The translations under genes and the position numbers were made by a program. Under the pieces are notes generated by a model, which was not told the DNA's origin, did not search any database, and saw nothing but the letters and a program-made list of their open reading frames with translations. Of a stretch of 64,000 bases of DNA, positions 21,975-50,286 are shown piece after piece (the first letter of the stretch is position 1; every line of letters starts with the position of its first letter). The stretch covers positions 736,001 through 800,000 of the forward strand of contig CAVWLP010000003.1 in NCBI GenBank assembly GCA_963755915.1. Direction: 5' to 3'. Origin of the DNA: an uncultured Phycisphaerales bacterium (lineage in GTDB: Bacteria; Planctomycetota; Phycisphaerae; Tepidisphaerales; Tepidisphaeraceae).

Positions 21975-23198
21975 ATGTCGGCGAGCTATTATTCGCCTTA
22001 CGTGCAGAGGCCGGCAGTTTTGTCGGCCATCGGGGTTTTGAGCATCATCGTCGCATCCGTCTCGCTGCTGGTGGATTTTGGATCGCTTTCGTTTGCGAAT
22101 GTCGTTTCGCGGTTTGCGCGGGCGACGACGCCTGCGAGCACGGTTGCGCCTGCACCGGCTCCGGCGAAGCAGGCGGCGGCGGAATATGTTGCGGCGCAGG
22201 GGCTATCAAGCTCGCAGCGGGGGATCGTGATCGGGGCGCTTCAGGCGATGCATCCGATTTCCGATGCGCGGCAGAAGCAACTGGATGGATTGCTGGCGGA
22301 TGTGGGTCAGGAGGTGATCCAGATTTCGCCGGACAATCTGACGAGTGATCGGGTGACGGCGTATGTGACGGACGTCCGGCAGATGCCCAGCGGGTCGGGC
22401 GGGGAGCCGGACGATCTTTTTATCCTGGGGAGCGGGCGATTACAGATTTCGGATCAGAGCGCGATCTTTTTTCCGCAGGACAGCCCCTCGCCGATCCGAT
22501 CGGGCGGGGGGAGTTACACGGATTCATCCGGTCAGACACACCTCGCGAGCGAGCAGATCGCGGGGGTGATCGACCGGGTGCAGACAATGTGCAATCACGC
22601 GATGAACGATACGCAGCAGACAGCGCTGGCGACGGAACTGGCGGCGCCGGCACAGACGCTGATAACGCCGGGTAATTCTGTGGCCGTGGTCGCGGGGCAG
22701 GTGCAGAATGCACAGATGCTGCCGGACGGAACGCTGGCGGTGACGACGGTAAATGGGTCGATGAGCTTTGGGCCGTCGGGGCAGAGTTATCCGGGGATCG
22801 TGTCGGCAACGGTGGCGGCATCGCCGTGGGGAAAAGGGCCGGTGGTCGTCAAGGGCGATGCGAACCTGCTGGTGATCGACGGCCTGCTCAGTTTTGTTCT
22901 CGCGGGGTTTCTGCTGGCGAGCGGGATCGTGCTGATGCGCAATTCGCCGATGGCGCGGTGGATGCTGGTTGGATATGGAATCGCGAAGCTGCTGGGGACG
23001 GTGTTGTCGGTTTGTGCCGTGTATACGATCGGACAGGAACTGGGTGGCGGGGATTCGGATGCGCAATCCGTGGCGATGGCTTGGGCGATTATTCTGGGGG
23101 CGCCCGGGGCGGTCTGGGCGGTGGTGGTGCTGATCGTGATGAGCTTGAGATCGGCGCGGGAGTTTTTGAGTGTGCCGGCGGGGGCGGGGAGTTTTTGA
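21975..23198 (+). CDS. Hypothetical membrane protein
   Basis: One N-terminal TM segment, a large soluble domain and three C-terminal TM segments. Confidence 0.65.
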   Translation: MSASYYSPYVQRPAVLSAIGVLSIIVASVSLLVDFGSLSFANVVSRFARATTPASTVAPAPAPAKQAAAEYVAAQGLSSSQRGIVIGALQAMHPISDARQKQLDGLLADVGQEVIQISPDNLTSDRVTAYVTDVRQMPSGSGGEPDDLFILGSGRLQISDQSAIFFPQDSPSPIRSGGGSYTDSSGQTHLASEQIAGVIDRVQTMCNHAMNDTQQTALATELAAPAQTLITPGNSVAVVAGQVQNAQMLPDGTLAVTTVNGSMSFGPSGQSYPGIVSATVAASPWGKGPVVVKGDANLLVIDGLLSFVLAGFLLASGIVLMRNSPMARWMLVGYGIAKLLGTVLSVCAVYTIGQELGGGDSDAQSVAMAWAIILGAPGAVWAVVVLIVMSLRSAREFLSVPAGAGSF

Positions 23199-23286
23199 GC
23201 TGCTGGAAGAGGTAGAGGGTTGCAAACCCATATCTCAGAATATCTCACTTTATCTCACATTTGGAGACTGAATCGGGTCGGCGCGG

Positions 23287-23331
23287 TTTTTTTTGGCGCC
23301 CTTGGCGTCTTGAGCGAAGCGGGCGGTTAAG
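23287..23331. repeat. REP-like arm (CTTGGCG units), reverse complement of the IS target arm
   Basis: ttggcgcccttggcgtctt-gagcgaagcg-ggcggttaa. Confidence 0.7.
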
Positions 23332-23519
23332 AGAATTGATCGGTCTCCGGCCTACCTTTCGCGGTGTACCGCCCGTCGCCGTCCGCGGCTCCGTTTTAAC
23401 CGCCAAGAAACTATGAAGCCGAGCCTTTCTCGGGACGTGAACGGGGTCAAAATGCCCCAAGTATGAACGAGCGTACCGCGTAGGTCGCTCAAACGTCTTT
23501 TTTGAGAAAGGACTCGGCA

Positions 23520-24563
23520 ATGCGAATTCTCGCTTTGGACCTGGGAAAGAACAAGAGCGTTTTTGTGGATTATGTCACCGGCGGTGGAGAAAGAACGTTC
23601 GGCAAGATCGGCACCAATGCCCACGAGGTGCAAAAACTACTCGAGCGGGTGCGTCCGGATCGACTGGTCATCGAGGCCGGTCCGGCGGCAGGATGGGTTT
23701 GTGATCTGGCGGAGCGGAACAATGTTCCCGTCCAGGTGGCCAATGGCAACGATGAACGCTGGCGCTGGAAGACGGTGAAGGAGAAGAGTGATCGTAAAGA
23801 CGCGCTGAAGATGGCGGCGATGTCGGAGATGGATTCGCTGCCGACGGTGCACGTGCCCAAGGCATCGGTTCGGCAGTGGCGTTCATTGATTGAATACAGA
23901 CACGGCCTGGTGGATCGCCGCACGGCGCTCAAGAACTCGATCCGATCAATCTACGAGCGGCAGGGTTTGTATTTGCCCTCGGCGACCAAGGCGTGGACGA
24001 AAGCGCGACTGGAGGAAATGAGGAAGGAAGCAGCGGCCGCATCGGCGGAAGATCTGTGGCTGTTTCAGATCGGTTGTGAGGTGGCGCAACTGGAGCACCT
24101 GGAGAAGCAGATCGAAACTGTCGAAAGCAAGCTTCAGGAGTTGGGCCAGGCCAACAAAGCGGTGAAACGATTGCAGGAGGTGCCCGGCGTTGGTCCGCGG
24201 CTGAGCGAGGCGGTGGCGGTGATCATTGATGATCCCAGGCGATTCAAGAATGCACGTCAGGTGGGATGTTACGTGGGTCTGACGCCGCGGCGCTGGCAGA
24301 GCGGCGACAGCGATCGCCAGGGGCGGATCAGCAAGGCAGGCAACGCGCTGCTGCGGGAGTTGCTGGTGGAGGTGGCGTGGCTGGGGGTTCATCGCAATAC
24401 GTGGATGAAGGACGTGTACGAGAGGGTTCTACGTGACAGCGAGAAGCGCAAGAAGATCGCGATTGTTGCGGTAGCCAGGAGATTACTGGTGAAGCTGTGG
24501 GCGATGCTGCGGGACGGAACCCGATGGAGAGAACCCCAGCGATCGCTGACGGCGGCCACTTGA
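23520..24563 (+). CDS. IS110 family DEDD recombinase/transposase
   Basis: ALDLGK, VIEAG and KSDRKDA (DEDD residues); VPGVG, GLTP..WQSG, GRISKAGN and AVARRL. Confidence 0.95.
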   Translation: MRILALDLGKNKSVFVDYVTGGGERTFGKIGTNAHEVQKLLERVRPDRLVIEAGPAAGWVCDLAERNNVPVQVANGNDERWRWKTVKEKSDRKDALKMAAMSEMDSLPTVHVPKASVRQWRSLIEYRHGLVDRRTALKNSIRSIYERQGLYLPSATKAWTKARLEEMRKEAAAASAEDLWLFQIGCEVAQLEHLEKQIETVESKLQELGQANKAVKRLQEVPGVGPRLSEAVAVIIDDPRRFKNARQVGCYVGLTPRRWQSGDSDRQGRISKAGNALLRELLVEVAWLGVHRNTWMKDVYERVLRDSEKRKKIAIVAVARRLLVKLWAMLRDGTRWREPQRSLTAAT

Positions 24564-24868
24564 AAATCGAAAAGGCGATGACTGTCCCGACAAGTCGGTA
24601 CAGGCGATGGAGTATCTCCCCTCCGGAAGACACCGTGTCAGAAAGCCGTTGTCTTCTGTGCAGGGGATTGAGTAGAGTTGAAGTGAAGTGGAATTGACGC
24701 GTTCGTGCAGGTTGAATGAGCAAGGCCAGACCCCGGTTGGCGTCTTAAGCTTCAAAGCTTGCCGCTAAGAATAGGGCTGGCCATTTGTACAGTTGAATAG
24801 GCCCGCCGCCAGGCGAGAGCACTGAATAGAAGGCTCACCCAATCGACCGCATGAGCGATCAACGCCCC
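24564..24868 (+). ncRNA. Putative bridge RNA / seekRNA
   Basis: About 300 nt of structured non-coding sequence. An internal loop at 24724-24782 carries two segments matching the insertion target. Confidence 0.75.
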
Positions 24869-24945
24869 TTGACAAGGCTCGGCTCATAGAAGACGCCAAG
24901 AGCGCCAAGAAAATACAGGCCGGTTCGCGAAGTGCTATAGTCTCG

Positions 24946-26307
24946 GTGATGGGCGAAAACTTTTTCGATTTCCAGCAGCGGCTTGCCGAGAAGAAATCAT
25001 CGCCAGCGCCGGATGCGGCGGCGGCGCTGACGGTTACGGAGCTTACCTTCGCCATCGAAAAGGCGATCAAGACCGGGGTTCCATCGCTTGTGACCGTGCG
25101 CGGAGAAGTCAGCAACGCCAGCAAGCATCATGCATCGGGGCACCTTTACTTCACGATGAAGGACACGGACGCGTGCATCAACTGCGTGATGTGGCGCGAC
25201 AACGCAGCGCGGCTCCAGTTCAAGGTTGAAGACGGGCTGGAGATTATCGCGACGGGCCGAGTTTCGGTTTACGCGCCGCAGGGAAGATATCAGCTCCAGG
25301 TGCAGCGGCTTCAGCCGGCGGGGAAGGGGGCGCTGGAGCTGGCCTTTCGGCAGCTTCAGGCGAAACTTGCGGCGGAGGGGCTCTTTGAGGCGGAGCGGAA
25401 AAAGCCGATTCCGCAATATCCGCGGCGGATTCTTTTGGTCACCAGTCGGGCCACCGCGGCGCTTCAGGACATGCTCAAGGTGCTGCGGCGATATCCGTTT
25501 TTGAAGCTGATGCTCTATCACGTGCCGGTGCAGGGCGAAGGGAGTGGTGTGAAAATCGCGGAGGCGATCCAGCATGTTTCGCGGCGATCGAGTGATATCG
25601 GTGGCGTCGACGTGATCCTTCTGGGTCGCGGCGGGGGGTCGCTGGAAGATCTGTGGTCGTTCAACGAGGAAGTCGTCGCCCGGGCGATCGCGGCATCGCG
25701 GATTCCGATCATCACGGGAATCGGGCATGAGGTGGATTGCTCGATTGCCGATCTCGTGGCGGATTATCACGCCCATACGCCTACGGAAGCGGCGCAGGTG
25801 GCGACGCACCAGTGGAAGGCCGCCGGCGATACGCTGCGGCAATCGCGGCTGCGGCTGTTTCAGTTCATCCGGCAAACGGCGCAGGATTGCCGGCATCGGC
25901 TGGCTTCCATCCAGCGACATGAATTTTTCCGTCGGCCGACAGACTGGATTCAGATGCTTCGGCAGCGATTGGACGATCGGCAGAAATCGCTGGGGCTGGC
26001 GCTGACGGGGCGGTTATCGAAGGCGGGGCATCGGTTGCAGATGCTAGAGCCGCGTTTGCCGTTGGGGATCAAGCTTTCGGTTCAGAACCGCAGCAGCCGG
26101 CTCGATGCGATGGGGAAGCAGCTTCAGGCGCTGTCGCCGCAGGCAGTGCTGACGCGGGGATATACGATTACCACGCTGAAAAAAGGCGGGGAAATCTTGC
26201 GCAGCTCGGCTGCGCTGAAGCCGGGGGACCGGCTTCTGACGCGATTCTCTGACGGGCAGACTGAATCGACGGTGCATGATTCGCGGCAGATGTCGCTGTT
26301 TGAGTAG
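24946..26307 (+). CDS. xseA: Exodeoxyribonuclease VII large subunit
   Basis: GEVSN..SGHLYF, RGGGSLEDLW.FN, GIGHEVD and TPTEAA motifs. Confidence 0.95.
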   Translation: MMGENFFDFQQRLAEKKSSPAPDAAAALTVTELTFAIEKAIKTGVPSLVTVRGEVSNASKHHASGHLYFTMKDTDACINCVMWRDNAARLQFKVEDGLEIIATGRVSVYAPQGRYQLQVQRLQPAGKGALELAFRQLQAKLAAEGLFEAERKKPIPQYPRRILLVTSRATAALQDMLKVLRRYPFLKLMLYHVPVQGEGSGVKIAEAIQHVSRRSSDIGGVDVILLGRGGGSLEDLWSFNEEVVARAIAASRIPIITGIGHEVDCSIADLVADYHAHTPTEAAQVATHQWKAAGDTLRQSRLRLFQFIRQTAQDCRHRLASIQRHEFFRRPTDWIQMLRQRLDDRQKSLGLALTGRLSKAGHRLQMLEPRLPLGIKLSVQNRSSRLDAMGKQLQALSPQAVLTRGYTITTLKKGGEILRSSAALKPGDRLLTRFSDGQTESTVHDSRQMSLFE

Positions 26308-50199: not shown

Positions 50200-50286
50200 T
50201 AGGTAAAATTTGAAGGCAAGCGCCTATGGCGCATTTTCTCCCCTCCGGAAGACACCGTGCAGAAATGCCGGTGTCTTCTTTTTATT
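50200..50286 (+). ncRNA. Candidate small RNA / terminated leader homologous to the first hairpin of the IS110 non-coding region
   Basis: TGnTATAAG upstream; CU-rich tract; gaagacaccg/cggtgtcttc hairpin plus T-run. 23-nt identity with 24615-24637. Confidence 0.5.

Follow-up and report, generated by a model that had tools for sequence, protein, structure and literature searches.

How does an insertion sequence (IS) come to sit, copy after copy, at the same position of a genomic repeat, and could the RNA encoded in its own non-coding end specify that position? This question is raised by an IS110-family element of the IS1111 type found at positions 23409–24893 (plus strand, 1,485 bp as first delimited) of the 64,000-nucleotide (nt) stretch analyzed here, hereafter the window, which covers positions 736,001 to 800,000 of contig CAVWLP010000003.1 in the assembly of an uncultured Phycisphaerales bacterium (GCA_963755915.1). 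An earlier annotation made from the letters and a list of open reading frames (ORFs), the sequence-only reading, had interpreted the element as an IS1111-type IS110 with an RNA that encodes its own target, and this interpretation is borne out by the NF033542 and Pfam matches of the protein, the downstream non-coding region, the subterminal repeats and the published guide order. The best overall explanation, which we consider highly probable, is an intact IS1111-type RNA-guided insertion sequence with a downstream guide RNA. The protein family, the ends, the single site, the complementarities, a fold conserved with altered stems, and guides that covary with both their targets and the donor ends are directly supported. 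By homology to ISEc11 and IS621, the RNA would be produced and bound by the protein, a circle would form, and the strands would be exchanged at AG.

The 347-amino-acid (aa) protein matched PF01548 (2.9e-10) and PF02371 (2e-24) and scored 216.6 bits, against a cut-off of 140, with the NCBIfam model NF033542 "IS110 family RNA-guided transposase". Its length lies inside the 330–350 aa range given for the IS1111 group in the text of PMC11187229, and its C-terminal half aligned to the solved IS621 and ISCro4 recombinases (E = 1e-16 to 3e-18). GLTPRRWQSG, which bears S261, stands opposite GLTPRRYESG of IS621 and carries the catalytic serine motif described for the IS110 family, G(L)-P----S/T-G (PMC11187229), and SDRKD stands opposite TDTVD, the D-x-x-D of IS621. 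The candidate DEDD residues are D7, E52, D91, and D94, with D7 and E52 assigned by motif alone. The closest annotated plasmid-borne homologue shares only 40% identity. Judged by these alignments, the protein is an IS110-family RNA-guided DEDD/serine transposase. A TIGR-Tas RNA-guided endonuclease model of NCBIfam also matched residues 130–263, weakly and below threshold (26.8 bits, cut-off 100), which probably reflects a shared helical region.

The genome (3 contigs, 6.6 Mb) holds nine copies of the element, seven identical and two with one mismatch. Each of them has TAACCGCCAAGA as its left and CGCCAAGA as its right flank, and all nine occupy an identical position in a repetitive extragenic palindromic (REP)-like repeat; every copy thus lies in the site that had been predicted from the window alone (CCGCCAAGACGCCAA), and none at an unrelated one. 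The boundaries of the element can be slid by up to 4 nt inside the AAGA repeat found at 23405–08 and 24890–93, and excising 23409–24893 rebuilt the empty site AACCGCC-AAGA-CGCCAAGAGCGCCAAG, exactly at the coordinates proposed earlier. The rebuilt 20-mer (AACCGCCAAGACGCCAAGAG) occurs uninterrupted 14 times in the genome, and 22 occurrences of its central 15-mer were counted; unoccupied targets are thus still available. The element is intact and recently active.

The target site is one arm of a REP-like palindrome composed of CGCCAAGA-type units. This palindrome reads CTTGGCGCTCTTGGCGTCTTGGCGGTTA, a spacer, then TAACCGCCAAGACGCCAAGAGCGCCAAG (window 23283–23330 and 23397–23408/24894–24915, and the flanks of copies L001–L009). 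A variant arm, TAACCGCC-CGCTTCGCTC-AAGACGCC, is without the window-type site and retains the site of the L031-type relatives described below.

Members of the IS1111 group are described as having subterminal inverted repeats of 7–17 bp with short terminal extensions and a longer non-coding region downstream of the gene (PMC11187229, PMC11208160). In the window, the inverted repeats are set inside the core copies by 3 nt on the left and 1 nt on the right, and the transposase gene has ~111 nt of non-coding DNA upstream against 330 nt downstream. An automatic inverted-repeat search by 7-mer seeds returned spurious repeats and was superseded by an alignment anchored on C.ATG (left) and CAT.G (right).

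The same anchors were used to place the element ends of relatives from genomes of the phylum and class and from metagenome contigs. These relatives, located in Phycisphaerales and Pirellulales genome bins, share 28% to 91% aa identity with the window protein, mostly above 30%. With the core read as "core + 3 nt + C.ATG" on the left and "CAT.G + 1 nt + core" on the right, the left and right core dinucleotides are equal in 25/31 related loci (AG, TG, GA, or AT), and two metagenome elements have GG; six loci depart from this rule, namely L039, L076, L079, L082, L083, and L093. This comparison of ends points to a dinucleotide core, the AAGA identity being an upper bound and not the core length. 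The "AAGA core of up to 4 nt" of the sequence-only reading therefore holds as a limit, and an exchanged core of 2 nt, AG, appears more likely than one of 4 nt. In the multi-copy families of L076 (G522) and L079 (G488), the right-junction dinucleotide is GG or AA against AG at the left; their guides still predict an AAG-containing target, and the junctions appear one base short or long. The right flank of another locus, L077 (G559), resembles the stop-codon region of the same kind of transposase gene, which suggests an insertion beside or into another element copy; the element's own guide does not match this flank.

The two target guides lie exactly where they had been placed, TTGGCGTCTT at 24737–46 and CCGCTAAGA at 24762–70. 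A 10-nt exact complement to the 28-nt target, as found for the top-strand guide, was reached by only 5/2000 dinucleotide shuffles of the non-coding region. The sole mismatch of the bottom-strand guide, a U where the top strand has C, faces a G on the bottom strand and is therefore an rU·dG wobble. This second guide is credited because of its position and its behavior in relatives; a wobble-tolerant shuffle test was uninformative for it, as more than half of the shuffles attained the observed value. As described in PMC11187229, IS1111 seekRNAs carry the top-strand match first, the bottom-strand match 3′ of it, and both matches include the insertion point, where they overlap. The guides of the window element likewise complement both target strands, in this order, and overlap at the insertion point.

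Covariation of guide and target, proposed earlier as a check, was found among the relatives. L096 (90% aa identity) occupies the same site as the window element and carries the same top-strand guide. Four copies in one genome bin (L031–L034, 91% aa identity) are inserted one 8-bp unit further (GACGCCA-AG-AGCGCCAA), and their top-strand guide, TTGGCGCTCT, is the exact complement of the shifted target. The 59-nt arms of the window and L031 types differ at five positions, three in the top-strand guide, one in the apical loop and one restoring a stem pair, while the bottom-strand guide is the same because the left half is near-identical in both registers. The L031-type guide was also found together with the flank GCGCCAAGA in an RNA-library contig (run X20). 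The word "reprogrammable", applied to the element before, would be justified solely by this natural retargeting in a 91% relative.

More distant relatives followed their own targets as well. The top-strand guide of L098 (CTTATCCCCT) matched its target at 10/10 positions, those of L099 and L068 at 9/10 exactly and 10/10 with one wobble each, and that of L075 at 8/10 exactly and 10/10 with wobbles. We then compared cognate and non-cognate pairs over the 15 loci with both flanks known. The top-strand guide matched its cognate target at a mean of 8.1/10 (at least 8 in 11/15 loci) against 5.6/10 for the targets of other clades (at least 8 in 1.7% of 238 pairs), and the bottom-strand guide, taken at a fixed homologous position, at a mean of 6.8/9 (at least 7 in 10/15 loci) against 3.6/9 (at least 7 in 2.9%). 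This position-specific test took over from a longest-common-substring matrix of targets against whole non-coding regions, which favored the cognate top-strand pairs but was blunt and confounded by the conserved CAGTTGAAT. L098 (a 51% relative; L098:1-183 and right flank) sits in a ~16-nt tandem repeat (ATCAGAAAAGGGGATA), and its bottom-strand guide matches at 8/9 with a U·G wobble, as in the window.

The 330-nt non-coding region folded better than all of its 100 shuffles (z = −4.0). With the guides held single-stranded, the fold consists of a closing stem, the target arm, a joint, a hairpin (24801–20), and a second joint. The outer stem of the target arm is the one drawn in the sequence-only reading, GGCCAG.CCC at 24724–33 with GGGCTGGCC at 24774–82. 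The closing stem, P1, comprises ~20 pairs in the window (24699–24721 with 24834–24860). When the 24 nt 5′ of the target arm were paired with the 28 nt 3′ of the ATAGAAG segment, cognate flank duplexes had a mean energy of −18.8 kcal/mol against −11.2 kcal/mol (sd 3.8) for non-cognate ones, and in 12/18 loci the cognate flank was unequalled by any non-cognate flank. Within the target arm, the outer, inner, and apical stems of relatives differ in sequence and keep their complementarity when read by eye, GGCCAG/CTGGCC becoming GACGAC/GTCGTC, GATGAC/GTCATC, or GCGGCGGC/GCCGCCG. A duplex-energy test of this GC-rich outer stem was noisy (cognate −14.2 against −11.1 kcal/mol, with many non-cognates equal), so the covariation of the target-arm stem is taken from the reading by eye. 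The modeled guide RNA would measure ~160 nt (roughly 24699–24860) and in this resembles the "long" seekRNAs, listed at 148–172 nt in a review table (PMC13604230).

The segment ATAGAAG at 24826–32 recurs at the element's right end (24886–92), and the suggestion that it is a donor guide gains from the relatives, where it is a family feature: the corresponding 7-mer follows the pattern AT.G, one base, then core, and is exact in 27/34 loci (forms ATAGAAG, ATAGGAG, ATGGATG, ATAGATG, ATAGTGA, ATAGCGG, ATAGAGG, ATGGAAG, and ATAGTCG). Its partner, left as unclear before, is probably AGUU at 24791–94, which is the weakest part of the model. The 4 nt 5′ of the second GAAT.GG motif are fully complementary to left-end positions +2 to +5 in 18/26 loci and across three left-end variants, pairing AACT with AGTT, ATCC with GGAT (L039), and ACCC with GGGT (L074, L078, L082, and L083). 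Five further loci match at 3/4 positions, one at 2/4, and two showed no such motif match. These counts take the best of up to four motif occurrences per locus; every 4/4 case was the occurrence after the target arm. Just upstream of AGUU the window has a C·A mismatch, and L031 has ATAGTT, with six matches.

In the left donor guide, the core is followed by a base identical to the one that opens the right target flank in 25/34 loci (17/23 distinct combinations), and all four bases occur. Permutation gave a mean of 9.3, and 0/20,000 permutations reached 25. Agreement of this base with the first base of the left end, which would come next in the circle, is limited to 2/34 loci. The nine misses are L037, L096, L031, and L097, which belong to the window's clade, and L070, L076, L079, L083, and L093; the window's clade has G against A here, a possible G·T wobble. 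The bottom-strand target guide extends with an A that equals the first base of the left end, and this base is nearly invariant. These observations might indicate that in this IS1111 clade both bottom-strand guides extend beyond the core by one base that belongs to the other DNA partner: the first base of the left end for the left target guide, and the first base of the right target flank for the left donor guide. We propose this tentatively, as a reading that may well be wrong. If it is true, the RNA would be fully complementary to both integrated junctions, and the extensions would correspond, on the bottom strand, to the "handshake guides" that IS621 has for the top strand and would tune strand exchange or excision; the G·T wobble in the window's clade would be a remnant of retargeting. 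The handshake guides are described as lying beside the top-strand guides and pairing with non-cognate DNA after strand exchange (PMC11208158), and as modulating insertion and excision (PMC13626964). A full-text literature search returned no bottom-strand extension described for IS1111 elements, and the figures or supplements of the 2024 papers may show one.

Features of the IS1111-type element and its target site in the window (all coordinates are window positions).
Feature	Position	Strand	Evidence or remark
Left target half AACCGCCA, part of a REP-like palindrome arm	23398..23405	+	Left flank same in 9/9 copies
Left copy of the probable 2-nt core AG	23406..23407	+	Core rule; identity with right end spans AAGA 23405–08
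Left subterminal inverted repeat CTATGAAGCCGAGCC	23411..23425	+	Pairs with 24876–24889, one 1-nt indel
Transposase/recombinase gene, 347 aa	23520..24563	+	PF01548, PF02371, NF033542
Long hairpin between gene and guide RNA	24617..24667	+	Fold; motif at 3′ ends of other insertion sequences here
Closing stem P1, 5′ strand	24699..24721	+	Constrained fold; flank-duplex energies
Target-binding arm: outer stem GGCCAG/CTGGCC, inner CCC/GGG, two guides, apical hairpin	24724..24782	+	Constrained fold
Top-strand target guide TTGGCGTCTT	24737..24746	+	10/10 reverse complement of AAGACGCCAA (core + right target half)
Apical hairpin AAGCT-TCAA-AGCTT between the guides	24747..24760	+	Exactly as in the sequence-only reading; constrained fold
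Bottom-strand target guide CCGCUAAGA (left target half, core AG, one extra A)	24762..24770	+	8/9 against CCGCCAAGA
Probable right donor guide ACAGUU	24789..24794	+	AGUU 24791–94 pairs with AACT 23409–12; 18/26 loci
Conserved GAATAGG motif after right donor guide	24795..24801	+	Most relatives
Hairpin P3 between the donor guides	24801..24820	+	Constrained fold; in relatives, variable length and compensating stems (by eye)
Left donor guide AUAGAAG (right-end ATAGA + core AG) and next base G	24826..24833	+	7-mer exact in 27/34 loci
Closing stem P1, 3′ strand	24834..24860	+	Constrained fold; flank-duplex energies
TTGACA, −35-like hexamer 10 nt before right-end CATAG	24869..24874	+	Candidate half of a circle-junction promoter (putative function)
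Right subterminal inverted repeat GGCTCGGCTCATAG	24876..24889	+	Pairs with left repeat; anchored end alignment
Right copy of core AG	24891..24892	+	Core rule
Right target half ACGCCAAGAG	24893..24902	+	First 8 bases (ACGCCAAG) in 9/9 copies; bases 9–10 = AG in 8

Taken as a mechanism, the recombinase would bind the ~160-nt guide RNA encoded downstream of its gene, the closing stem holding a multiloop together. In the target arm, the guide at 24737–46 would pair with the top strand of the core and right target half, while the one at 24762–70 would read the left target half and core on the bottom strand. The single-stranded joints of the multiloop would carry the donor guides, AGUU (24791–94) reading the left end and AUAGAAG (24826–32) the right end and core. 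The recombinase–RNA complex would then join the circularized element to CCGCCA-AG-ACGCCAA, with the strands exchanged at AG.

The complementarities could have another origin if the target-like segments were not guides but a captured piece of the REP-like repeat, the fossil of an old insertion or recombination. The repeat is abundant in the genome, the element always lies within it, and the two segments are able to pair with each other in the unconstrained fold. A captured copy, however, would hold both halves side by side and in one orientation; in the element, the right half appears as its reverse complement, 5′ of the left one and with a hairpin between them. Relatives with unrelated targets hold their own target halves at the same two positions, and the 91% relative altered only the segment that needed to change, so we give this origin almost no credence. 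That same relative, together with L096, speaks against the idea that the protein recognizes the shape or sequence of the palindrome and that the RNA matches are incidental or only regulatory: the near-identical proteins (90–91%) differ in register exactly as their guides do, and the family has been described as RNA-guided by experiment (PMC11187229, PMC11208160). While REP-like hairpins are frequent targets of several transposase families and the contact of RNA with protein is here deduced from homology, recognition by the protein alone seems very improbable, if a shade less so than the captured repeat.

A milder departure would leave the target guides in place and make the donor-guide assignment wrong, the 14–15-bp repeats being read by the protein and AGUU and AUAGAAG being conserved for structural reasons. 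AUAGAAG-type 7-mers nevertheless track the right end and core through at least seven sequences (27/34 exact), and the 4-mer turns into GGAT or GGGT exactly where the left end changes. On the other hand, these independent changes are few (ATCC in one locus, ACCC in four) and most left ends are identical, AGUU is only 4 nt long and has the strongly conserved GAAT.GG next to it, and an 82-nt seekRNA of ISEc11 was described as enough for movement (PMC11187229). We therefore regard this alternative as unlikely, yet clearly the most serious of the three.

Several observations weigh against the reading of the element as an RNA-guided insertion sequence with target and donor guides. By our estimate, the 8/9 match of the bottom-strand guide is not significant on its own, and the right donor guide amounts to only 4 nt with an adjoining C·A mismatch in the window. 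Some loci fit their own targets poorly (L067, 6/10; L073, 6/10 and 6/9; L069, 4/9 for the bottom-strand guide). Since the related loci are not independent, the cognate/non-cognate contrasts are descriptive and overstate significance. An Rfam search of 23000–25300, with E up to 10, gave only chance-level matches and no bridge or seekRNA family, and RNAalifold on a MAFFT alignment of 16 target arms returned 4 pairs only, a poor recovery explained by MAFFT misplacing the stems. The structural support is consequently made up of the flank-pairing test and the stems read by eye. A scan of 23300–25000 for sigma-70-like promoters found none inside the element.

Public sequencing runs, examined as assembled contigs, bear on expression and movement. 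The element was present in soil and sediment metagenome runs, and two contigs from RNA libraries covered parts of it, one identical over 24523–24727 and one of the L031 type over 24695–24893. As RNA libraries may contain DNA, such contigs do not prove transcription. The assembled contigs contained no circle junction and no true empty form of the locus, which also counts against the reading; parts of the element were without contig cover in runs X5, X9, and X20. Two "skips" in run X1 turned out to be other repeat variants and not the empty locus. Near the right end, TTGAC occurs within 26 nt upstream of CAT.G in 36/42 loci, mostly at exactly 10 nt. The TTGACA of the window would fit the −35 half of the circle-junction promoter described for the family (PMC12288879), and its −10 partner in the left end is, by our reading, weak.

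The element belongs to a known kind with an unchanged mechanism, as seekRNA and bridge RNA have been in the literature since 2024 and the protein is already called an RNA-guided transposase by standard annotation. The comparison with ISEc11, ISPa11, ISKpn4, and ISPst6, the IS1111 elements of the seekRNA study (Siddiquee et al. 2024, PMC11187229), was made with their description and not with their sequences. By that description, they have in common with the window element the transposase length, the downstream non-coding region, the subterminal repeats, one specific target, the order and overlap of the guides, and natural retargeting between close relatives. Unlike them, as far as the text describes, the window element has a host of another phylum and targets a tandem CGCCAAGA unit in a REP-like palindrome, and retargeting in its clade is a one-unit register shift.

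IS621 and ISCro4, whose bridge recombinases belong to the IS110 group (Durrant et al. 2024, PMC11208160; Hiraizumi et al. 2024, PMC11208158), are described as sharing with it a DEDD and serine recombinase, one RNA with target and donor guide pairs and one guide per strand, a dinucleotide core (CT in IS621), and a REP-type target. Against their description, the RNA of the window element lies in the right end instead of the left, its guides come in the opposite order, the element has long subterminal inverted repeats, and the donor guides sit in a multiloop instead of a simple internal loop. Donor-binding bases in a multiloop are reported for many IS1111 members (Durrant et al., PMC11208160). 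ISPpu9 of Pseudomonas putida, an element of the IS110 group, resembles the window element in its insertion in REP sequences and its recombination at AG (PMC12288879). As described there, it differs in being without subterminal inverted repeats and in having its RNA upstream, extra small RNAs, and modular circles.

What this locus adds is the single-site proof, the one-register retargeting pair, the probable 2-nt core, and the closing stem with the RNA size it implies, as well as the candidate second donor guide and the candidate one-base extension of the donor guide into the target. It provides a well-resolved, multi-copy, natural IS1111-type RNA-guided recombinase from a poorly studied phylum. 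The window element, L096, and L031 are near-identical variants and form a natural retargeting set, in which a three-base guide change goes with an 8-bp register shift. The set of ~30 related elements in which ends, cores, targets, and guides can all be read might be used as a design table for bridge editors of the IS1111 type, a group less explored than IS621, and the one-base extensions of the bottom-strand guides are a testable point.

A motif (CTCCCCTCCGGAAGACACCG ... CGTTGTCTTCTG) within the long hairpin that separates the gene from the guide RNA has 43 further matches in the genome, including one at ~50237–50279 of the window and others on contigs C2 and C3. Of these copies, 31 lie in the 3′ part of one element, whose reading frame has an IstB-like ...ITGKSYRLR and reads through the motif, nine occupy the corresponding part of a second element of this type, and three are isolated. 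The one in the window is followed by a T-run and looks like an intrinsic terminator. The label IS21/IstB for the motif-bearing elements is a reading of the C-terminal peptide and thus provisional. L097 and L103 carry the motif elsewhere in their non-coding regions.

Finally, a 453-aa ORF at 24946–26307 begins 53 nt past the right end of the element, so that the insertion and its outward-facing TTGACA sit just upstream of a host gene.

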